Assembly (NCBI GenBank): GCA_002633005.1
Contig: NMRA01000005.1
Location: 193,613-256,823 of the forward strand
Reading direction: 5' to 3'
DNA from: Phoronis australis
Lineage: Eukaryota; Animalia; Phoronida
DNA length: 63,211 nucleotides
Positions 9,271 through 60,945 of this stretch are shown in pieces. Within the stretch, counting starts at the first letter, position 1. Each line of letters opens with the position of its first letter. The notes under the pieces are model-generated. The model worked only from the letters and a program-made list of their open reading frames with translations. It was not told where the DNA came from and searched no databases. The translations under genes were made by a program, and so were the position numbers.

Positions 9271-9344
9271 CAGTTTACCCGACATTTTACTGTATTGTTT
9301 TATAAGGAGTATGGATAATCATGATAGCAAGTAACAGCATATGT

Positions 9345-9790
9345 TCACGAATAGGCGAAACTGTTCGCCATTTGAAAACCAGGACCAAGGAACATCTAAA
9401 TTCTGACAGTAATTCACATGTAAATATTCACCTGCAGAGCTCCAATCATTGTTATCAGCAGTGCTCTTTCAATGACTTTGCAATAATAGACCAAGCAGTA
9501 ACAACAAAGGAGCTTAAAATTCGTGAGGCTTTACATATCAGTTGGTGCAAGCCCAATCTCAATAGGCAACTGACACACCACAGGTTGTCATTGTTGGTCT
9601 ATTTCATTGTCACTCCCTGTAACTGACTGTATCTGTGCTTCATTACTTGTTGCTGGGCCTAGCTAGGTGGCCACTGTATTGTGACTTCTGAGGATGGTGT
9701 TTAATAAATGACACCGAAACATGTCAAGTTTTAAAACCGTTGTTATTTTCGTGAGTATGGATAAAAATAATATTGTATTTGCTTGCTAGC
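9345..9790 (+). mobile_element. 3' fragment of a Penelope-like retroelement (GIY-YIG endonuclease C-terminal half plus pLTR region)
   Basis: IGETVRHLKTRTKEH...HL..S.HC.....F.IIDQA....ELKIREALHISWCKPNLNRQ matches the Penelope GIY-YIG tail; followed by a hammerhead motif. Confidence 0.9.
9683..9730 (+). ncRNA. Minimal type I hammerhead ribozyme
   Basis: gactt-CTGAGGA-t-ggtgtt/gacacc (stem II)-GAAAC-AT-GTC-aagtt; stem I gactt:aagtt; palindromic ACATGT stem III; GUC cleavage triplet at 9723-9725. Confidence 0.85.
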
Positions 9791-18349: not shown

Positions 18350-20343
18350 GGGAAAGTTACCGGTTCGGTACCAGTTATCATTATCGTACCACGTATTTTC
18401 CCGCCAAACTACGTATGCTTGGCAACCAAAAGAGTGATTACTTTTTGCGACCTCAAACGGCGATGACAGAAAACCAAGCAAAATGTCGAGCAGACAACCC
18501 GGTGAAAAACGGTGAGCATTTTCCACTTTTTTGACATGTTGATGTAAATTTTAGCTCCCATGAATAGTGTGATAAGACAACAACAAGTATAGCAAATGAG
18601 TGAACAGCGATGTGCCATCTGATAGCTCATTCTCATCTCTTTGTATGGTGTAATTTCTGGTTGCCAAATCGCATGCCAAATATTTTCAGCCCACGTATTT
18701 GAAAATAGGTCAGTGTCACGAGTGTCGTACCACTAGAGGTCACGGGTATGGTACCCGGGGTACGATACATGTAACCAAGAGGTACGATACAAAACGTGAT
18801 ACGTGTATGTAATGTGTTGTTTTTCTTGCGTTTTAGTACTATTTTTTTACTTTCAGGAAAATGTCATCGCCGTCGTCATGGACATCAGAGGATATGCAGA
18901 ACTGTCTCAAAGCTATAGATGAAGGATTGTGATTTAACGCTGCTTTTAAGCTATTTGGTATCCCAAAGCCCACTATTCGCCGTCACCGCATGGGTCTGAA
19001 GTACACGCAAAACATGCCAAGTTACGTGGAGGCCCAAAAGTTTTGCCTACAGAAATAGAAGCTGATTTGGTAGAACACATAAAAGGTCTTGACGATCTTT
19101 TTTTTGGTATCACGCCAAAAGATCTTATGAAACTTGCATATCAATTGGCAAAATCCCATGGCATCCATAAATTTAGCGAAACAAAACAGTCTGTCAATAA
19201 AACCTGGTACTACAGCTTTATGAGACGACATCCAGAACTCAGTCTGCGCACCCCAGAAGCTACATCTACTGGTCGCATGAAAGGTTTCAGCCGCCGAGCT
19301 GTTTCAGATTTCTTCCATAAATATTACGAGCTAATTGAATTACACGGATTTACTGCTGACAGAGTGTTTAATATGGAGGAAACTGGACATTCTACCGTGC
19401 AAAGGCCATCGAAAGTGATCTCAACGAAAGGGAAACGCCAAGTTGGAGCAGCAACAACCACTGAACGAGGAACAAATACTACTGGTGTCCACTGTCATTC
19501 TGCCATAATCCAATACATCCACCCCGATGCTCATCTTCAAGAGGAAACTGTGATTCCTTGACTGTTGATGCACCCACTGGTACAAGTTTTGCCTGCACTA
19601 ATTCAGGATGGATTGACGCTATAGTTTTCATTGAATAGCTTCGTCATTTTATCCGATCAGTGAATGCGTCAGTTGAAAACAAAGTCTTTCTACTCGAGGG
19701 ACATGCATCCCACACAAAAGACCTTGACGCCATTAAGCTAGCAGGGGAAAATGGTGTTTTCATTCTCTCCTTACCCAGTCACACAACGCACAGGCTCCAA
19801 CCCTTAGATGTTAGCTTTTTTAAGTCATAATTGTGATTCCGATGGAGACTCTGATTAACCTACATAAACCAGGCAATTTAAGTTTGTTACATAAGTATAG
19901 TTGACTGGTCCATTTTGTTGTCTTTAAGTGTTGGTTTGTTCGCACATATTTATAAGGACGTCTGTTAGCATTAGAGTCATACGGTAATGCTGTTTCTTGT
20001 AATATGTTTCTATGTGGCCAATAAAAGGTTTGACTGTTTGCACTGTTTCCTTGTTCATCTTTGCTTGGTGAAATACACGTAGTTATTAATGTAGTACCAC
20101 TGGTACGATTCTGATGTCTGACAGGTACGAATTACAAAACCGGTCATGTGAATCGTACTTTTATTGACTTTTCTACAACCGTGTTTTGCAGCTAAAACAT
20201 AATCATTATTCTTCTAAATCACATGTGCGGTTATACATGTGAAGCCACTTAAGGCTATGCCATAGCTCCCGATTCCGTGGCTAGTTCAGCGTGGCGTACA
20301 GAGGGGTGCATCCTTAAGTGGTACGAAACCAGTAACTTTCCCC
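18350..20343 (+). mobile_element. pogo/Tigger-like (Tc1/mariner superfamily) transposon
   Basis: TIRs gggaaagttaccggttcggtacca / tggtacgaaaccagtaactttccc; TA at left flank; encloses transposase pseudogene. Confidence 0.9.
18861..19830 (+). pseudogene. pogo/Tigger transposase (HTH_psq, CENP-B-type HTH, DDE_1), disrupted
   Basis: WTSEDMQNCL..FGIPKPTIRRH; WYYSFMRRHPELSLRTPEATS; VFNMEETG; KGKRQVG..T..ERG; PPMLIF; SGWI; LLEGHASH; LPSHTTHRLQPLDVSFFK; internal stops and frameshifts. Confidence 0.92.
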
Positions 20344-22712: not shown

Positions 22713-23808
22713 TCCAAGTTCGGTCGTCGTTTGCTTTTGCTTACGAGTTAGTCAACATGCCACGCTGTTGCTGCGTACTGGGGTGTACTCGTTATCGTCT
22801 CACGTACAGAGGAAAAACTGTCCCACTTGCCCGAGTGTACCGCGACACACTCCCACTGAAGGGTGGTATGAGCACCCAAACTGTTTACAACCCGACGTGT
22901 GACTCCCTCGCCACACACCTGGCACCTTCCAAATAGCTCCACAATAAACTTATCAAACTTAGGCTCACCGATCTGTTCATTGGATGACGAACTGTCCTCT
23001 TCACTGGGTGTCGAAGTGGGCATGTATTCACTCCCACTACTCAACATCGCTGCAGGGGTGCTTACAGGCTCTGGGCGAGAGACAACAGCACAGAGCGAAT
23101 CACTGCTAATTCCCGGAATTACACGCAATGGGGTACGTTCGGAGGCACGGGTGACAGTAGATGAAGTGCCTCCAGTCACTGTATAAGTGACCACAGCTCG
23201 CGAGACTTCTCGCTTCAAAAACGCACTTCTCGGGGTTGACGACGGGGCACTGCCGGGAATCAACAGCAATGGTATGGTACCCTTCTTCAGGCGTTGTTTC
23301 GCAAGGACCTTCATCAATTCCGCGTACATATTTGTCATAGTCTGACGGCAGAAAATGCTTGCCACACACTCGGTAACCTGCTCTACTGCTTTGTACGTTG
23401 CGTGGACGGGTAGCGCTGCGTTCTTCACATGAACGAGCCAAGTACGGCGAAGTGTGTCATCCTTTGGAAAGCGATGCAAGGTACCCAAAGCGCGTGTGAA
23501 ACGATAATGAGTACATCCCGGCACGGAGCAACAGCGTGGCATGTTGACTGACTTGTAAACAAAAGCAAACGACGACCCAACTTATCACAACCGAGGTAGA
23601 ACAATGACTGACTCGACAGCTCTCACAGTCAGACTATAATGAAAAGAAATTGGCGCGAAACTCTTGCCTCCCAAAACGTCACTTCCGGGGTAGAGGACGA
23701 GAAATTAATCAAATTACGAAAAGCTGTAATTAAGTGAAAAATGTGTCTGGGATAATCAACGAAACTTATTTTTGCTAAAAATGACATGAAAAAATGTTGC
23801 TTTCGCCT
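22713..23808 (-). mobile_element. Kolobok-type THAP transposon derivative, copy 1 (left end truncated)
   Basis: Right end ttcgcct-TTAA; minus strand MPRCCSVPGC...LHRFPKD...W...(YRVCGKHF in shifted frame)...LKKGTIP, then KFIVELFGRCQVC...C...H...WDS. Confidence 0.8.
22748..23542 (-). pseudogene. THAP zinc finger plus N-terminal part of Kolobok-like transposase; frameshifted, no DDE core
   Basis: C2CH THAP motif split across ORFs 22748..23542 and 23106..23441. Confidence 0.8.
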
Positions 23809-23939
23809 TTAAGAACAGTCCTATGAAGGAAATTCTTCGCTACAGACCAGAACTTTTGTGTATTTTTGTGCTCATTAGGGGGTTCATGATATTCGATGAC
23901 TTCATGACGTAACTATTTCTTGAGTTGCGACAGCGCCCT

Positions 23940-37359: not shown

Positions 37360-38685
37360 AGGCGAAGGCAACCTTTTTTCATGTCATTTTTAGCAAAAAT
37401 AAGGTTCGTTGATTATTCCAGACATATTTTTCACTTATTTACTGCTTTTCGTAATTTGATTAATTACTCGTTGTCTACTCCGAAAGTGACGTTTGGGGAG
37501 GCAAGAATTTGGCGCCAATTTCTTTTCATATAGTCTGACTGTGAGAGCAGTCGAGTCAGTCATTGTTCTACCTCGGTTGTAATAAGTTCGGTCATTGTTT
37601 GCTTTTGCTTACGAGCCAGTCAACATGCCACGCTGTTGCTGCATACTGGGGTGTACTCATTATCGTCTCACGTACAGGGAAAGAACTGTCCCACTTGCCC
37701 GAGTGTCCCGCGATACACTCCCACTGGAGGGTGATCTGAGCACTCAAACTGCTTACATCCCGCCGTGTGACTCCCTCGCCACACACCTGGCACCTTCCAA
37801 ATAGCTCCAATACAAGTCCACAATAAACTTATCAAACTTAGGCTCATTGGATGACGAACTGTCCTCGTCACTGGGTGTCAAACTGGGCCTGTATTCACTC
37901 CCACTACTCAATATCGCTGTAGGGCTGCTTACAGGCTCTGGGGCTAGAGACAACAGCACAGGGCAAATCATTGCTAGTTCCCGGAATTGCACGCAATGGG
38001 GGTACGTTCGGAGGTATGGGTGACAGTAGATGAAGTACCTCCAGTCACTGTATATAGTGGCCACAGTTCGCGAGGCTTCTCGCTTCAAAAACGCACTTCT
38101 CGGGGTTGGCGACAGGGCACTCAACAGCGACGGTATGGTACCCTTCTTCAGGCGTTGTTTTGCAGGGACCTTCATCAATTCAGCGTACATATCTGTCATA
38201 ATCTGACAGCAGAAAATGCTTGCCACACACTCGGTAACCCTCCGTTGCTTTGTACGTTGCGTGGATGGGTAGCGCTGCGTTCTTCACATGAACGAGCTAG
38301 CCAAGTACGGCAAAGTGTGTCATCCTTCGAAAAGCGACGCAAGGTACCCAAAGCGCGTGTAAAACGATGAGTACATCCCGGCACGCAGCAACAGCGTGGC
38401 ATGTTGACTGACTTGTAAACAAAAGCAAACGACGACCGAACTTATCACAACCGAGTTTAATAAGAACAATGGCTGACTCGACAGCTCTCACAGTCAGACT
38501 ATAATAAAAAGAAATTGGCCCGAAACTCTTGCCAGCTCCCAAAACGTCACTTCCGGAGAACTGAGGACGAGAAATTAATCAAATTACGAAAAGCTGTTAT
38601 TAAGTGAAAAATGTGTCTGAGATAATCAACGAACCTTATTTTTGCTGAAAGTGACATGAAAAAAGGTAATGCCTTTAATTCGCCT
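37360..38685 (-). mobile_element. Kolobok-type THAP transposon derivative, copy 2 (both ends), ~310-bp TIRs
   Basis: TTAA-aggcgaa ... ttcgcct-TTAA; inserted into an aaacTTAAgttt unit; same internal structure as copy 1. Confidence 0.85.
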
Positions 38686-39289
38686 TTAAGTTTTTCCTCC
38701 AAACACTTAAGTTGTAAGCGATAAACTTAAGTTCAATTTTGTAAGGTTTGTTCAAATTTCTTAAGTACGGGAAAGTTGCCGAGAAACTGCATCGGTTTGT
38801 GCGCCGCACAAGAGTGTGAAATGTCAGTGTGGAACATGCTGCGATTCAGTCGGAAGCCACTGACACTTTGTTGGGCACATTTCAAAAGGAATCATGTTTC
38901 GACCCAACATAAAAGTGGCGTTATGATGAAGGACGCGCCACCTTGTAAGTGTAAATGCAAATTCTACAAATAATGAATAAACTGCTTGCATTTTTTAAGG
39001 GCGAGTGATGCCACTGACAGGCCCTCGACCCTGGCCTTAAGATGGAGTACTACCACAATTGTGTAGGCTTATGTACGGTATTATGTTTAGACCTCAGGCT
39101 GGTCATTCCATCATGGCAATCAGTGAATTGAATGACCCTGGTTTACATTGGCCTTTATGTCAGTGGTTATAAGTGTCTGTTTTGTGAATTTTGACCACCC
39201 TTTGGTTCAGTTGGTTGCGGTGGTTCACATTTGTCGATCTGTAGCAACGTGTGCAAGTGGGTCGAGTTCATACGAAAAAATACACTGGA

Positions 39290-39550: not shown

Positions 39551-42500
39551 TTCTAACTACAGAATAATTTGAATTTCAAGTATTTTCTATAATAAATTAA
39601 CTCTTTCAAAAATATGATGTATTGTTGTACCTGTTCAAGAGATAAGAATAGTTCACAATCTTCATTCAACAACCTGGCATGCATAAATACAATCAAATCA
39701 TAGACAACTGAACATTTCGAAACCTTAAATCGAAACTTGCACAAGTATTACAGTTATCATACAGCATCAGTCAAAGAAAAACAAAAAGCAGAGCCTTAGG
39801 CATTTGAAAAGTAGCAGCCTTTGTAAACATTTTGAAGAATCTAATGCTGACTAATTGTAGATTGTTTTTTCAACATTTGTATGGTGAGCCTCGTACATGA
39901 AATAATCATATGACACTATGAACTTAGTTGAACACATCCATACGTTGAAGGGTAAATGAGTATTTTATATCCAGTTAGCTAAATAAATGTAGGCAATAAG
40001 ATAAAAAATAATAATTTCAGGCATACAAAGCTATAGCAGCAAAATATTTAGTTGTCTGAAAAGCACGGTCCACATGCGATACCAAATCTTTAAATGTCGG
40101 CATTGTACAGCCTTTCATGGTCTGCAGAACTCTGGAGTCCGCACTTTTCAGAGCACTGAGACTTGATGTAATCCATTAATTTGAGGTATCTGTCCACAAC
40201 AGGAACTGATGACCGGCACAGTGTTGGTAGGTCAGTGGACATTAGCTCTCAAGAGTTATAGTCTTTTCACTTCATCATGCATATTTTCAAAGTCTTCTTC
40301 TGTACTAAAAAAGTTGAAAAATATCCAGTTAGAGGGTATCAAATAAAGTATTAAGTAAATTTGAATTTTGTATTGAGCTTGTCGCTCAGGAAATACATAA
40401 ATGCTTTCTTATTTAATTAGCCATACTTTTTAGAAAATTTAATATGCTTTTAACTAAGAGCATTAATAAGGGGGTTATTTGCTACACTAATGGAAACTCA
40501 TAGATGAAGTTTGATTTTTAGTCCTATGAGCAGAACAGTTAATTAAACCATACTGCAGAGACACTACGGGTAGATGACTGGTGGCAATGGCAAACCTCTA
40601 ATATCCGATACATCTCTTGCCTATACCTCAATTATTTAGTTTCAGTTCATGTAACCAAAATAAAAATTTACTTTTCTCTCATTGCTCTGATGTGAGAATT
40701 TTAACACGGAATCATAAAAACGTGTTTCTAAGTCTCAAGTAATTAAAGTAAATAAAATATGTTAGGTCAAAACACGATTAACTGACACATGTCTTGGCAA
40801 CTACATGCACATGCAGGTTTTAGTCTGTAACCCAACTCATTTTGAAATCTGTGCTCTACTACATAACTTCCATAACCTTAATCAATTGAATCAGTTAAAT
40901 TTCCGTTTTGTTTGCAAGACTAAAGCTACTCATTCATATGTGAAACATAAATGTCACTTAACAATCAAATTGACAAAAATACAATGTTCAACTCAAAAAC
41001 TCACCATTTAATGTATGCAGTTCTTCGCTATCCATGCAACGCGAGTTCATGTCGTGAACACATCCACTAAAACAAGAAACTGTAGGAACACCGCATTTAT
41101 CCACCTTCACTCTTATCAGGCTTCTATTGTGAGTCGGCATGCGTGAATAATTGGCTGATAAGCCACCTCTGGAAGTACTTTGGGCTGAATGGATGACCAG
41201 GCCATAAAATGATAATTAGCCAAGACCAGTTACTATAATGCAACAAAGAACAAGTAATGTCTTGCATCACGTAGCCTTGGTGGAAAGCTGTATACTGTAT
41301 TGGCTCAAACAAACGCTTAGAAAAATTCATTTCACGGGGAGGGGACGCTTATTGTAGTGAGCCTACGACAGTTGAAACCCGGTTTCCCAAACGGGTAAAA
41401 TCGGAAGCTAGGATTCATCAAATTTACGCTCTGTGACGTATTTGTAGCCTATGACAGCCTTTCTACAAAATTGTGGTGCATTGCTATCAACTTCCGTTGT
41501 TAAATTACGATAATTTTTCAAAAAATTGTGCTCATCACAGGGCGAAAACTTGCCGACNNNNNNNNNNNNNNNNNNNNNNNNNNNNNNNNNNNNNNNNNNN
41601 NNNNNNNNNNNNNNNNNNNNNNNNNNNNNNNNNNNNNNNNNNNNNNNNNNNNNNNNNNNNNNNNNNNNNNNNNNNNNNNNNNNNNNNNNNNNNNNNNNNN
41701 NNNNNNNNNNNNNNNNNNNNNNNNNNNNNNNNNNNNNNNNNNNNNNNNNNNNNNNNNNNNNNNNNNNNNNNNNNNNNNNNNNNNNNNNNNNNNNNNNNNN
41801 NNNNNNNNNNNNNNNNNNNNNNNNNNNNNNNNNNNNNNNNNNNNNNNNNNNNNNNNNNNNNNNNNNNNNNNNNNNNNNNNNNNNNNNNNNNNNNNNNNNN
41901 NNNNNNNNNNNNNNNNNNNNNNNNNNNNNNNNNNNNNNNNNNNNNNNNNNNNNNNNNNNNNNNNNNNNNNNNNNNNNNNNNNNNNNNNNNNNNNNNNNNN
42001 NNNNNNNNNNNNNNNNNCTACAATTCCTGGCAACAGGCGCATTGTAATCCCTTGTCGGCGAGTCATAACAAGCGTCGAAAGCAGTTGTGGGAAAAGTCAT
42101 GTGAGAAGTTTGTGCTGCCCTTATTTCGGTATGTGTGCCTACGTCTTGTAGGGTTTCCAAAAGACGAGGAGGCGGGAGGGAAGTTAAAAACAGTTCGCTT
42201 CCCTGTCAGGTACATTTCTCATCATAACTTATTCATCTATAATTCCTCAATCCCCAAATGGAATTCCAGATTTTGTTTGCCGATTTCTAAGTAGACGTCT
42301 CGTCCCGTTCACTGCAACTGGTTAACTCTGAATGCCTGCACAAGTATTGTTTTTTAACTCAGGTGCCAAATGTCAACTCATTTGATACATCCCGGTAAAA
42401 TACAGAGATACAGTATCTGCAAAGTTTGACATCAGCGTAAGCCTACACAGCAATGGATTTTATGTCAGGACTAAATTAGCAACATAGATGTGATGTGATG

Positions 42501-46127: not shown

Positions 46128-46320
46128 GAGCTATGTTGAAAGGTAAAATGTCAAAGCAAAGGGGAATTTAAAGGCGACCAGTGTAAGCAAGAGATTTGAT
46201 CTCTACGTGACTTGGCAAAAATGTTCTCAAAATAACACTTAATGGCAGAGATTCAGATATCAATGGGTTTGCGATGTGAAAAGTGAGACTGGTGTGCAAT
46301 TAACCGTCTTAAACAATGTA
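46128..46320 (+). repeat. ~190-bp duplicate of the tRNA upstream flank (47252-47441)
   Basis: gagctatgttgaaaggtaaaatgtc...cagagattcagatatcaatgggtttgcgatg...caatgta in both. Confidence 0.9.
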
Positions 46321-46326
46321 ACCATT

Positions 46327-47222
46327 TGTCAGACGATTGTCTGTAGGTTTGTTTAAAAGGTAGCTATGCTTTGAAGTTGTGCGTAGATGGAGAGTGAATA
46401 ATCAAATCCAGTAATTAATTTATTATATGATAACCCCTAATTAGACAAATGAAACCTATTGTTAATTAAGTAATCAACTACAAAGAGAAACTACGCTAGC
46501 GCCCTCTTTAAAGATTACTTTAATCAAACAACCAAACGATCAAATGTCTTATCTGCTATCCAAGCTAGGACTCTCCACTTGTTGGATGTCTGTCCTGTTG
46601 GTGAATCTTCGAACTACACACACTGTATAGCGACAGTGTACTTGCTGGTCACCGTCTCTGGTGATGCAACACTTGCAGGCAATTTCTTCTACCCGCGACT
46701 CTTCTTGCTGGTCACAGTCTCTGGCTGATGACGCAACACTTCAGGTAGTATCTTACTACCCACAATGCAAGTGACAAGCTCTTAGTTAACTTCCGGTTCG
46801 TTAACCCTTGCCCTTGCCAAGATCCTTTCTAGAATCTTCCACGAGATGGCTCTGTCGTACAACTGCTTCTGTACACTGTAGCAAGTCTTTATGCTTCAAC
46901 TACTTTAGCGCATCTGATTATCTTGCTGATTTCAGCCCATAATATAACATTCTACTTATTTAGTGATTGGCTAATAAAAACCACATGATCATATCCACTC
47001 GTATTATTGGCTGTTACAATTTGTTCTCAGAATATTCTAGAATCTCTTGAGTACTTTGACCCCAGAACCCAAAGTTGTAAACACCATCTAAAAATAGATT
47101 TTGACGTTAAAATACATGTCAACAAGTCTGACCCCATGATTTGAAAGTACATATGCACAAATTTTGGGCAACTTAAAATGGATGTATTCTTACTAATTAC
47201 TGAATCAATATTTATTCTGACA
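46327..47222 (-). mobile_element. Solo LTR (Gypsy/BEL-type), 896 bp
   Basis: TGTCAGA...TCTGACA ends; 5-bp TSD CCATT (46322-46326, 47223-47227); minus-strand CCAAT motifs and AATAAA in promoter-to-polyA order. Confidence 0.85.
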
Positions 47223-47453
47223 CCATTTCATACAGTTCCGGATGTACGTCACGAGCTATGTTGAAAGGTAAAATGTCGAAGCAAAGGGAAATTTAAAGGC
47301 GACCAGTGTAAGCGAGAGATTCTCTACGTGACTTGGCAAAAATATTCTCAAAATAACACTTAATGGCAGAGATTCAGATATCAATGGGTTTGCGATGTTA
47401 AAAGTGTGACCCGTGTGCAAATAATTGTCTTAATCAATGTATCGATTATAACA

Positions 47454-47535
47454 GTTGCGATGGCCGAGTGGTTAAGGCGTTGAACTTCTAATTCAATGGG
47501 ATCTTCCCGCGTAGGTTCGAACCCTGCTCGCAACG
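47454..47535 (+). tRNA. 82-nt tRNA with Ser-type body and TCT (Arg) anticodon
   Basis: Acceptor GTTGCGA/TCGCAAC, D arm GCC-GAGTGGTTAA-GGC, anticodon arm TTGAA-CT-TCT-AA-TTCAA, variable arm GGGA-TCT-TCCC, T arm GTAGG-TTCGAAC-CCTGC, G73, T6 terminator 47540-47545. Confidence 0.93.
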
Positions 47536-47906
47536 ATAGTTTTTTAAAGCTCATGTTTTTTTTCCGACTCGGGTTCAAATTCTGCTTGCAGCGCCAATTT
47601 GTTTGCAATGCTTTCATCTTCTCAATGCCAAATAGCAATAAATGTTTGCCAAGAAGTATAGTTGCTTGATTTTTGTATAGTTACTTACGATACTTGCCAA
47701 TGATATCGAATTAAATCGTTTACTTTTTTCTATTGATTAAACAATGGCAATAGATTTTGTTTGCGTTATACTTAGATTACTTTCATTTTATTGGAATTAG
47801 TTTTTAATCATGAAATGAGTACACAGGTGTTGGGTTGAATTGAAGTATCGGACGTCATTGCATTGATTTTTTATCAGTACCACTCGTGAATCTCTTGGGT
47901 TTTTAA

Positions 47907-49848
47907 GGTAGGTGGGTACACAAAAAAATTAATTTTGACTGTTTTTTACATTTTTATGTCATCCTAATCTTTAATTCTTGATGCACAGTGTACTGAAGAA
48001 AAATAAAATCATTCTGAAAATCCAGAGTTGTTTTTTTAGCTATATTTGACCAAGCCTCAGTAAGTCATATGGCTTGAGTGCTCACCAGCTCAGTGATTGA
48101 CAACTGGGGCGGAGCATATATACAAGGACATTGGCTCCAATCTAACCCTGTCCACAAGCATTGCGTAACCGGGCAATCGAGAGTGATGTACCAGCTGATA
48201 TAGGTGTTGTAGCAAGACCAAAAATAAAACAATTCTATTTTTGACCGTGTGAAAGTTGGTAGTGAAATGGTGAACTAGCTCCTGTTCCAAGCCTGAGCCT
48301 GTTTGTCTATCTGCAAAAAAATTAAGTTGAGTACGCCAAGCCCTACCGAAGCCATCACGTGATGCACTCAGCTTGAGGAGTCCGTGCAGAAATTGTGCAT
48401 GTATAAGAGAAGTCGGTAATATAAGGTCAGGTGTCTTGCGAGAGGACGCTGAGTGTCGACGTGGGTGGTGTTGCACGATTCGGTGAAGACAAGCCGCGCG
48501 CGCGACACATGGACAACTACATGCCGTCAGAGTAGAATCTTCGCAGATAAACCGTGCTTCTGTGCTGGGACCACGCCGTGGACAAACTAGGCTGTCAAAC
48601 CCAGAGGATTTTTAACTTGCCATGCACTGGCCGTAACCCAAAGAATTAGAGAAATGACCCAGTGTTCAACATAACAAAAATTTTTCTAGTGCATAGATTC
48701 AAACATAACAATGAATTAAAACTCATGATATTATACGATTTTAGAGGAAAGCAATACAAGAAACTTTAGTAACTTGAGAATCTCACCCAAGCGGCGCTAT
48801 TTGCGCAGAAAGTGATATTTTCTTATCCCAAAGTCCATTCGGTACAGGCACGTAAAAATGTTGAGCCATTACTATGAAAGTAGTTCTTTATCCTCGTCGC
48901 CAACATTGTTATGTAGGCAGTAATGCGGCGATTTGATATAACACATATATTGGTTGATGATAATATTGGAATACTAACAAATAGGTCTGTGTAATATAGT
49001 TAGAGAGTCTTTTACAAACTGAGTTTAGAGTTCAGATGAATCGTATAAACAATCAACACATGGTTTTAATGTGTGGTTGGCACACCAGTACAGCAGACAA
49101 TAGATCAACGCTAAGCTCCGCCCACGTGACAGCCATATGTGTTTTGGTCGTCTGTCGTGCTTCTCAAGTTCGAAAAAATGATTGAAATTACGCTGTAAAC
49201 AAACAGGTATGTCACATTTTCTAAATATGAAGTAAATATCAGCTTTTTTCTAGTACCTCAACAAAAATTGGAACATAATGACCACGCATTCTTAACGAAA
49301 TTTGATCTCAAGTGGCAATCGATGACCGCATAGCTTCAAAGCCGTTTTTCTCGGCTCGTGATTTCAGGATAGTGACAAGATTCTCGGGCCTATTTTTCCA
49401 CAACACGTGGGTCAATTTTTACGAAAGTTGCAAATTTGAAATCCTCTAGGACTGAAGTAAAATCGCGTGCCAGGGTTTTTTGATAAATGGACCAGATTTT
49501 TAGTTATTAGATGGAAAGTGACCAAATGACAAAAAGTGGCGTGCTTGCCCCAACTCACACAAAAAATGCCACAAAATCATAATGATTTTGTACATATATT
49601 TGGTATGGATAAGTAGAATATTGCGTAAGGAAACAGTTGATGATGATCCCTATGCATTTTGAAAAAACAATCGAGGTAAAATTGGATTTTTTGAAAATTA
49701 AAAAATACGATTTTTTAAGAAAACGAACTACAAAAAAAACTTTTTTTTCGATTTTTGTCACTTTCAGAGTCATATCTAACTAGTTAAAACTCCCTTTTTA
49801 CTCATTTTAGTTAGGAACCTGGAGATTTGATCAGTGTATACACCTACC
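47907..49848. mobile_element. Kolobok-like non-autonomous element, 1.94 kb
   Basis: TTAA-ggtaggtgggtacac ... gtgtatacacctacc-TTAA. Confidence 0.85.
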
Positions 49849-54428: not shown

Positions 54429-54666
54429 GAATGTCCACAAGATGTCACCGTCGTCAGATCTCCGCAAGGTGGGTGCCTTCACGCCCATGAGCGCCACACC
54501 TAAAAATGATGACTTGGACGATATTCCCTTCATGTCTCTGCTCCAGCCATTGGAAAATGAACAAGACATCCCGACAGAGACAACAGCCAAAAACTGCGAG
54601 GAGACGAACGAAGAAGAAATGACTGGGACGCAAACAGAGAACACAGACTATGTCATGATTGAATTG
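54429..54666 (+). CDS. ATG13: Autophagy-related protein 13, penultimate coding exon (5' boundary tentative)
   Basis: Open frame ...RKVGAF...DIPFMSLL...ENTDYVMIEL ending at donor TTG|GTGGGT; YVMI matches the ATG13 LIR (human DDFVMIDF); acceptor tttataag| or cacaag|. Confidence 0.8.
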
Positions 54667-55248: not shown

Positions 55249-55452
55249 AAAACGCCATTTGCTGAGCCTGAAGCCAATGCCGATCTTGGACAATTTTACA
55301 AGGACTGTCAAGCAGCGCCACCTTTGGTCATGTTTGAAGATCAGTCAGATATTCAGCAGACTTTGTCTGGTATAGATGATCAGTTGAAAGTTTTTGAATC
55401 ACGCCTGCCAGATATAGACGACTTTGTCAAATCACTACAGATATCTGGTTGA
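55249..55452 (+). CDS. ATG13: Autophagy-related protein 13, last coding exon
   Basis: Acceptor ttttttttcag|, phase 0; KTPFAEPEANADLGQFYKDCQAAPPL...DQLKVFESRLPDIDDFVKSLQ resembles the ATG13 C-terminus (human DLGTFYREFQNPPQL...EFDAFVETLQ); TGA stop. Confidence 0.88.
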   Translation, partial: KTPFAEPEANADLGQFYKDCQAAPPLVMFEDQSDIQQTLSGIDDQLKVFESRLPDIDDFVKSLQISG

Positions 55453-59059: not shown

Positions 59060-59825
59060 TGGGGAAAATATTGAGTTTAGTAATTAACCCCGATTAACGT
59101 TATGCGGTTGAAAGAAGATTTAATAATTTGTGCGGTTTTATAGTTGTGTGTGGGGGGGGGGGGCTCAGGCCCGATTTCACCTGTCCGATTCAGACCACCA
59201 GCGTAACTGTAACGGAACTATGGCTAAGTAATGGCGCTCCCGGTCGATAGGCGCGTGATACCCTAGGCGACCGGCAGTGGTGCTGCGCATTACCACGTCG
59301 TCTGCTCCGTCGTCTACTTCATTTTTTCAAAGAAAACGGAATGTGAGTGACGAAGAAGAAACAGAAGCTACTGATAAGATTTAAATTTTAATCGAAGTCT
59401 CCGCTTAGAACCTCATCATTCTCTCTTTGTCATATATTAAAATAAGACAATTTCCAAAGCAATCGCGTGGTTAATGCCATCACGATCAGATTTGGTCTTT
59501 TGGGCAACTGAAAACTATTTTAAACACAACTTTTGCTACGAACTGGCCTTAGTATGACATTAAAAGTGGAAACGTGATGGCGCAGTGGTAGAGCACGCGC
59601 GCTTTGGCAGGCAGGTCGTCAGTTAAAGTCCTTGGCATTTACGAATTTTTTGTTTTTTTTTTTCTTTTTCCTTATTTGATAATAGTTCAGAAATCACGGA
59701 AAATGCTTGTTTTTAGAGGCAAAGGCAAAATTTTCTCCTGGGCGGGAGGGGGAATCCCCCATTCGGCGCTTCGCGCGATCATTTACGACAAAAGTTGGGC
59801 CCCTCCCCCCTTGATATCCACTGGT
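59060..59825 (+). mobile_element. hAT-like non-autonomous element with an internal tRNA-like segment; second copy from ~62911 to window end
   Basis: 59080-59292 matches 63015-63211; tggcgcagtggtagagc A box at ~59578; gggcccc-rich ends. Confidence 0.5.
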
Positions 59826-60773: not shown

Positions 60774-60945
60774 GGAGACGGTGTGGCTCAGTGGTTTGAG
60801 TTCCGGACTCCATACGGCCGTATGGGACCCGGGTTCGAATCCTGGCTTTACTGGCGGACAATCGAGCATTGCACAAAAGTCTCCTACTCCTCTGAGCTCG
60901 GTCTTACTAGTGAATGTATGCAAGGGAATGAATGAGAACCTGGAT
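60774..60945 (+). mobile_element. tRNA-derived SINE
   Basis: A box TGGCTCAGTGG, B box GGTTCGAATCC, no acceptor stem, non-tRNA body follows. Confidence 0.75.

Follow-up and report, generated by a model that had tools for sequence, protein, structure and literature searches.

The nev-tRNAs of nematodes are nuclear tRNAs in which a class II body with intact stems carries a class I anticodon, and their charging is described as following the body (PMC3333845). In C. brenneri, they include Arg(UCU) and Arg(CCU) types, and the survey in the same paper, covering about 52,000 tRNAs from 46 genomes, is described as finding intact class II bodies with class I anticodons in nematodes only. The major nev-tRNAs are derived from leucine tRNAs, are leucylated, occur in multiple copies and are conserved across nematodes (PMC3333845, PMC4300185). 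Isotype-switched alleles and anticodon shifts also show a mismatch between backbone and anticodon, and serine-backbone switches are described as either fixed or rare (PMC13010820, PMC3923123); the survey in PMC3923123 gives just one shift involving a Ser/SeC anticodon. A tRNA-Ser(UCU) has been engineered in yeast, where the intact form gave no transformants and dampened versions, carrying G26A or G9A, were viable, inserting serine at about 3% of arginine positions, mainly at AGA (PMC6827378, PMC8473984). The same reports place C40U among 22 dampening changes on a yeast Ser tRNA with a Pro anticodon. In invertebrate mitochondria, a tRNA-Ser(UCU) delivers serine to AGR codons (PMC9976931, PMC4615739), whose meaning shifted from Arg to Ser early in bilaterian history (PMC5633667); in mammals, the mitochondrial Ser tRNAs described in PMC9976931 have no long arm. 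Bacterial allo-tRNAs are long-armed as well and can carry serine, on a framework of a 9-bp acceptor, a 3-bp T stem and a 6-bp D stem (PMC11231383).

The window considered here (the whole stretch of DNA analysed, 63,211 nt) contains a single tRNA gene by ARAGORN, at 47454-47535 on the plus strand, with the anticodon TCT; the Rfam tRNA model matches the same interval (61.4 bits, E 7.4e-11). The gene combines a Ser(UGA/CGA)-type body with the UCU anticodon, has no intron and does not encode CCA. It is a class II gene with a 7/5 cloverleaf in which all 24 scored pairs are standard (23 Watson-Crick and one U.G, in the T stem), including seven of seven in the acceptor stem. The A box lies in the D arm (47461-47471), followed by the anticodon arm (47480-47496, anticodon at 47487-47489), the long variable arm (47497-47510, with a 4-bp stem and 3-nt loop at 47498-47508), the intact B box in the T loop (47514-47523, from the sequence and the Rfam alignment) and the discriminator G73 (47535). 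A T6 run, the predicted Pol III terminator, begins four bases past G73 (47540-47545), and a T8 run follows at 47556-47563. The features given in the initial annotation are all present; the gene is real, intact and unusual.

Some of the described systems can be set aside at this point. The standard 7/5 cloverleaf rejects an allo-tRNA, and the Pol III signals and cytosolic type of the gene reject a mitochondrial insertion in the nuclear genome, mitochondrial tRNA-Ser(UCU) being itself encoded in mtDNA. Some allo-tRNAs do have Arg anticodons, and 8/4 forms exist. Natural Ser bodies with a non-serine anticodon are also known as Candida tRNA-Ser(CAG), which underlies a true codon reassignment, and as a human tRNA-Ser(AAA) variant; these concern other codons, and reassignment is not indicated here. 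The gene resembles the nev-tRNAs in its nuclear class II body, class I anticodon and intact stems, but it has a Ser body with G73, was seen in one copy and probably belongs to a spiralian. Unlike the isotype-switched alleles and anticodon shifts, it differs by two anticodon bases and two compensated pairs. It shares the Ser body and UCU anticodon of the engineered yeast tRNA but keeps G9 and G26, and two of its G-C pairs have become A-U. In the open-access literature we came across no natural nuclear tRNA that joins a Ser body to a UCU anticodon; a Ser-to-Arg switch may be listed in the supplements of PMC13010820 (Tables S5, S6) and PMC3923123. Because the undampened yeast tRNA gave no viable transformants, a natural, fully paired animal copy needs an explanation, be it silence, dampening or mitochondrial sorting.

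How firmly is the body that of a serine tRNA? A pattern built from this gene, which left the anticodon and positions 30 and 40 unconstrained, gave at least 135 matches at 130 or more metagenome loci. The 135 matches listed all have Ser anticodons (79 TGA, 41 CGA, 13 AGA and 2 GCT). The closest natural Ser gene among them, a Ser(UGA) gene (L130), has an identical variable arm; the six differences are at anticodon positions 35 and 36, at C2-G71, which is U2-A71 here (47455/47533), and at G30-C40, which is A30-U40 (47483/47493). Outside the anticodon arm, a natural Ser gene agrees in 63 of 65 nt, whereas the best of 13 viral Arg(UCU) genes reaches 38. The HMM scores are 81.6 bits for Ser and 30.4 for Arg, a comparison that is partly circular, since the Ser set was fetched with a pattern from this gene. 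The serine-type body proposed earlier thus stands. The accompanying claim, that TCT needs at least two anticodon substitutions, holds when counted from UGA but not from Ser(GCT), which is one step away. Natural Ser genes with an AGA anticodon on a UGA/CGA-type body also occur (L027 and L050-L054; 13 of the 135 matches listed), and L027 is a tandem AGA/CGA pair, otherwise identical, which indicates that anticodons do swap on this type of body.

Eukaryotic SerRS recognises the long arm and G73. In mammals and plants, ArgRS relies on A20 and C35; U36 counts with C35 as an arginine determinant, and a tRNA-Arg may carry G73 (PMC9976931). The listed viral Arg genes have A20, and the base after G18-G19 here (47472) is T. 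With the long arm, the main SerRS determinant, and G73 kept, and with U in place of A20, serylation is predicted, in agreement with the earlier proposal. The structure is weakened relative to natural Ser genes. Its cloverleaf energy is -25.1 kcal/mol, compared to -27.6 to -33.9 kcal/mol in the 50 fully paired of 54 natural Ser genes, so that it is less stable than all 50; against shuffled sequences its folding energy has a z of -1.84, with 11 of 200 shuffles folding equally well.

The four changes outside the anticodon amount to two Watson-Crick compensations, an outcome with P 4e-5 for four random substitutions; one compensated pair from two random substitutions would have P 4e-3. The initial annotation had noted the pair in the anticodon stem (TTGAA/TTCAA) and missed U2-A71. 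In 54 natural Ser sequences from the matches listed, pair 2:71 is C-G in 49 and T-A in 3, and A30-U40 is found in none of the 57 distinct full-length sequences from the 135 matches listed. At P 4e-5, two compensated pairs argue firmly that the gene is not a decaying pseudogene. On the other hand, natural Ser genes often differ from one another by compensated pairs (5 of the 16 nearest-neighbour comparisons with at least two differences were fully compensated, among the matches listed), so that compensation demonstrates selection on the lineage but does not tell when the anticodon changed.

The anticodon arm as a whole is of Arg(UCU) type. It is identical in 17 of 17 nt to that of a phage tRNA-Arg(UCU) (L189), whereas the best of the 54 natural Ser genes from the matches listed reaches 14 of 17. 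At least 119 matches to the arm motif with U40 were obtained in viral contigs, one of those listed being a real tRNA, and the arm pattern gave two matches in prokaryote genomes, neither of them a tRNA. In the other 19 viral Arg(UCU) loci (12 distinct sequences), the pair is G30-C40, as it is in Ser genes. A human tRNA fragment in a table of PMC12233860 matches the arm in loop and 3' strand and has G30.U40, and by our own reading its parent is Arg(UCU). Two phage tRNA-like genes with an irregular anticodon loop (L145 and L146, positions 236-319, 'tRNA-???' in ARAGORN) also lie beside a tRNA-Arg(UCU).

Ser(UGA) and Arg(UCU) genes have a stem in common on either side of the loop, which makes short homology available for arm transfer. 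A single arm transfer or conversion could account for three or four of the six changes, and we infer that the arm was likely acquired through recombination, the presumptive donor being a tRNA-Arg(UCU) gene or cDNA. The same picture may result from stepwise change in which the arm co-adapted, or from one G34U substitution in a Ser(GCU) arm. The initial annotation had read the 30:40 compensation as evidence against a read error and simple decay, and both conclusions stand; as proof of selection on the switched tRNA it is weakened, because the whole arm is of Arg(UCU) type and a single recombination event could have brought it in. Arm transfer leaves U2-A71, which is not part of the arm, unexplained. 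This pair indicates a lineage that was at some time under selection for pairing, more in keeping with a useful gene than with a neutral one.

The surroundings also hold traces of tRNA-derived DNA. A remnant of a canonical Ser tRNA 3' end, followed by CCA, starts 37 nt downstream of the gene (47572-47596, plus strand); it has two mismatches over 22 nt to a natural Ser 3' end, where the next-best site on either strand of the window, the gene excluded, has seven. Since only 3 of 122 natural genes from the matches listed encode CCA, the remnant is likely a reverse-transcribed copy of a mature tRNA, and it points to cDNA insertion at this locus. It retains G71, which suggests that U2-A71 is particular to the switched gene. 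On the minus strand the remnant resembles a retroelement primer-binding site, but it runs past position 58.

The 5' flank of the gene (47253-47447, plus strand) is duplicated at 46128-46326 with 91% identity, by self-BLAST and alignment. This 199-nt duplicate, 1.1 kb upstream, stops 6 nt short of the tRNA start and has no tRNA; it was not seen among the contigs compared from the two DNA runs described below. High-copy repeats occupy 47150-47223 and the sequence from about 47900 onward. The former is the end of a very high-copy element, with a summed contig depth above 200,000 in one of these runs (X4); within 47150-47900, RNA-seq reads fall on this part alone. At 60774-60850 and 59572-59640 (plus strand) are two degenerate tRNA-like heads carrying A-box-like and B-box-like motifs; the Rfam search did not detect them, and they are probably SINE copies. 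A Pfam search of 16 and a further 150 of the 515 ORFs returned transposon domains and two weak matches below the cut-off. Decayed elements include a pogo/Tc5-type transposase (18885-19830, plus strand), 71-72% identical to gastropod elements, and two copies of a THAP-domain element on the minus strand (22716-23813 and 37584-38690). An ORF at 9306-9626 (plus strand) resembles a GIY-YIG endonuclease, by motif, and has no Pfam match; a 52-aa frame at 40093-40248 (minus strand) resembles, on visual inspection, the terminal exon of a further gene and likewise has none.

The host can be placed from the last two coding exons of ATG13, at 54430-54666 and 55249-55452 on the plus strand (all three PDB matches are ATG13, best E 0.012; 77 homologues and a profile search agree). 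A profile search of the whole window did not recover the conserved N-terminal exons; the intron may exceed 54 kb, N gaps may hide the exons, or the locus may be a partial duplicate. Across 30 clusters of homologues, the best-scoring named one is Owenia, followed by oyster and horseshoe crab, with echinoderms and a hemichordate lower; in a tree of 67 columns and 77 rows the exon's neighbour is Owenia, at weak support (82/76). The named homologues included no protein identified as nematode. By these exons the host is probably a spiralian. The transposase's resemblance to gastropod elements does not serve to place it, and two word-based protein searches and the Atlas yielded no usable match.

The TCT anticodon is authentic. 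A 726-nt contig from DNA run X4 matches 47190-47900 without a difference, TCT included, and a contig from DNA run X1 matches 47330-47946 with one difference, outside the anticodon, which rules out the read error that the initial annotation had also thought improbable. The two runs represent one sample, possibly the source of the window itself, and cannot be counted as independent. There is nonetheless a hint that the sample is a second individual: 24 31-mers are common to 47345-47398 and 46224-46277 and should break a contig there, but the X1 and X4 contigs are unbroken, and the 91% duplicate is unseen. Graph cleaning could also leave such contigs unbroken.

Among the X1 and X4 contigs (those resembling human DNA excluded), no second TCT copy was found and no other contig covers the anticodon, a result in which diverged copies may hide; self-BLAST and alignment likewise gave no second copy of the tRNA within the window. 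One contig covers 47332-47900, apart from paralogue pieces over the 3' half of the tRNA. An X1 contig of a paralogue shows C40, and the host's own Ser paralogues appear canonical. Depth is flat across the gene and its flanks. The possibility raised in the initial annotation, that the gene is one of many SINE-like copies, therefore falls: with flat depth, a T6 run four bases after G73 and no second copy in the window, a tRNA-derived SINE is rejected. The gene contig has a depth of 22.5 in X4, against 19.3, 21.3, 36.9, 40, 41.2, 44.8 and 65 for seven further pieces (of 343), and 4.68 in X1, against 5.45-13 elsewhere. From this comparison, made in X4 on eight contigs, the depth looks halved, and the gene is possibly hemizygous, present on a single haplotype; the evidence is thin.

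Outside this sample, the TCT version was not seen in organisms B and C, both found by small word shares and both carrying the neighbouring repeat; the contigs of organism B hold ordinary Ser genes (CGA, with C40). The combination of Ser body and TCT gave no match in viral contigs and none in metagenome contigs, two collections in which animal DNA occurs only by chance, and a Ser body with A30-U40 and any anticodon gave none in viral contigs. Three RNA-seq runs with the same species label (about 18-19% of each) have no reads over 47254-47900, and ordinary Ser tRNAs, which would be the positive control, have none either, so that this zero has no bearing on expression. Coverage in run X5, taken as RNA by guess, is confined to the downstream repeat.

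What, then, is this gene? The explanation that we tentatively put first is a weakened and tolerated isotype-switched tRNA that mistranslates at a low rate. A Ser(UGA/CGA) gene would have acquired the anticodon arm of a tRNA-Arg(UCU), likely by recombination with the gene or a cDNA; Pol III would transcribe it from the internal boxes to the T6 run, and SerRS would charge the product with serine. U34 would then read AGA, and AGG less well, and serine would be placed at a small share of cytosolic AGA codons. Tolerance would come from the single gene, possibly on one haplotype, from the weakened stems and from competition by the normal Arg(UCU) tRNAs. The allele would then bring little or no benefit and would be no change of the code. 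Several points go against this explanation. U2-A71, outside the arm, implies past selection on pairing and better suits a useful gene; the halved depth comes from eight contigs, and diverged TCT copies could be hidden; and nev-tRNAs are described as maturing with no detectable mistranslation in vivo (PMC4300185), from which it follows that a charged tRNA need not mistranslate.

The strongest of the other explanations, unlikely though it is, makes the gene a silent or near-silent copy, intact and not yet decayed, that is untranscribed or whose RNA is degraded. The site is dense in repeats, with high-copy elements about 230 nt upstream and about 370 nt downstream, the stability is the lowest among the Ser genes compared, and the gene may be hemizygous; in Caenorhabditis, polymorphic isotype switches are described as mostly rare and species-specific (PMC13010820). 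However, no pair is broken, the A and B boxes and the terminator are intact, two pairs are compensated, and the neighbouring Ser remnant has decayed while the gene has not.

Rather unlikely is a nuclear tRNA that is serylated in the cytosol and imported into mitochondria to read AGA/AGG, in place of a lost or degenerate trnS1. The anticodon and the predicted amino acid fit the bilaterian mitochondrial code, and ATG13 places the host with the spiralians, in which mitochondrial AGR should stand for serine. Replacement of a single tRNA by import is described in marsupials (PMC11571959). Import would also explain how a tRNA of a type lethal in yeast survives, and the compensated pairs imply selection. 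Most bilaterian mitogenomes, on the other hand, are described as keeping 22 tRNAs, a 'missing' Ser1 being usually there with another anticodon; an essential gene in one copy would not be expected at halved depth, and the sequence offers no readable import signal. A stricter form, in which the serylated tRNA is kept off cytosolic ribosomes and serves mitochondria only, its two A-U replacements acting as marks for sorting or dampening, is a slim prospect.

Slimmer again are the chances of a selected role in the cytosol or nucleus, either regulated low-level Arg-to-Ser mistranslation or a non-decoding function (as a source of fragments, a primer or a chromatin boundary) of the kind discussed for the nev-tRNAs. 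Such a role would suit a gene that has two compensated pairs and whose arm matches its UCU anticodon, and fixed switches from serine backbones are described in two of three Caenorhabditis species (PMC13010820). But there is no second occurrence in the viral and metagenome contigs or in organisms B and C, and the one copy seen is possibly hemizygous.

That the gene is a remoulded arginine tRNA, charged with arginine despite the long arm and serving as an extra Arg(UCU), is very improbable: C35 and U36 are present, G73 is allowed in tRNA-Arg (PMC9976931) and the arm is Arg-type, but A20 is absent, both SerRS determinants are kept and the engineered yeast Ser(UCU) inserts serine (PMC6827378, PMC8473984).

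A nuclear code in which AGA/AGG means serine, as the recoding proposed in the initial annotation would imply, can be rejected with near certainty even though the tRNA has the right make-up, since one weakened copy, the only one seen, could hardly serve two codons and the AGR columns of the pogo-like transposase align with R and K in a small test (at its 7 AGA/AGG sites, homologues have R in 42% and S in 1%, and at 5 of these sites the most frequent residue is R or K; controls in the same protein give R in 64% at 15 CGN sites and S in 54% at 20 TCN and in 33% at 11 AGY sites, the element being decayed and some columns coming from shifted frames). The two ATG13 exons contain no in-frame AGA/AGG and so are of no use for this test.

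The meaning of the locus depends on which of these explanations applies. A silent or private copy would be a curiosity of tRNA gene turnover. If the tRNA served mitochondria only, its anticodon would obey the mitochondrial code, in which AGR is serine, and contradict the cytosolic one, and a bilaterian would be running two genetic codes from one nuclear tRNA pool. If the gene is expressed, as the tolerated isotype-switched tRNA that we favour would be, it would join the nev-tRNA kind as a natural allele that mistranslates, with a serine body and a host that is probably no nematode. It would also be a likely example of anticodon-arm exchange between tRNA families, an intermediate of the type required by ambiguous-decoding models of code change.
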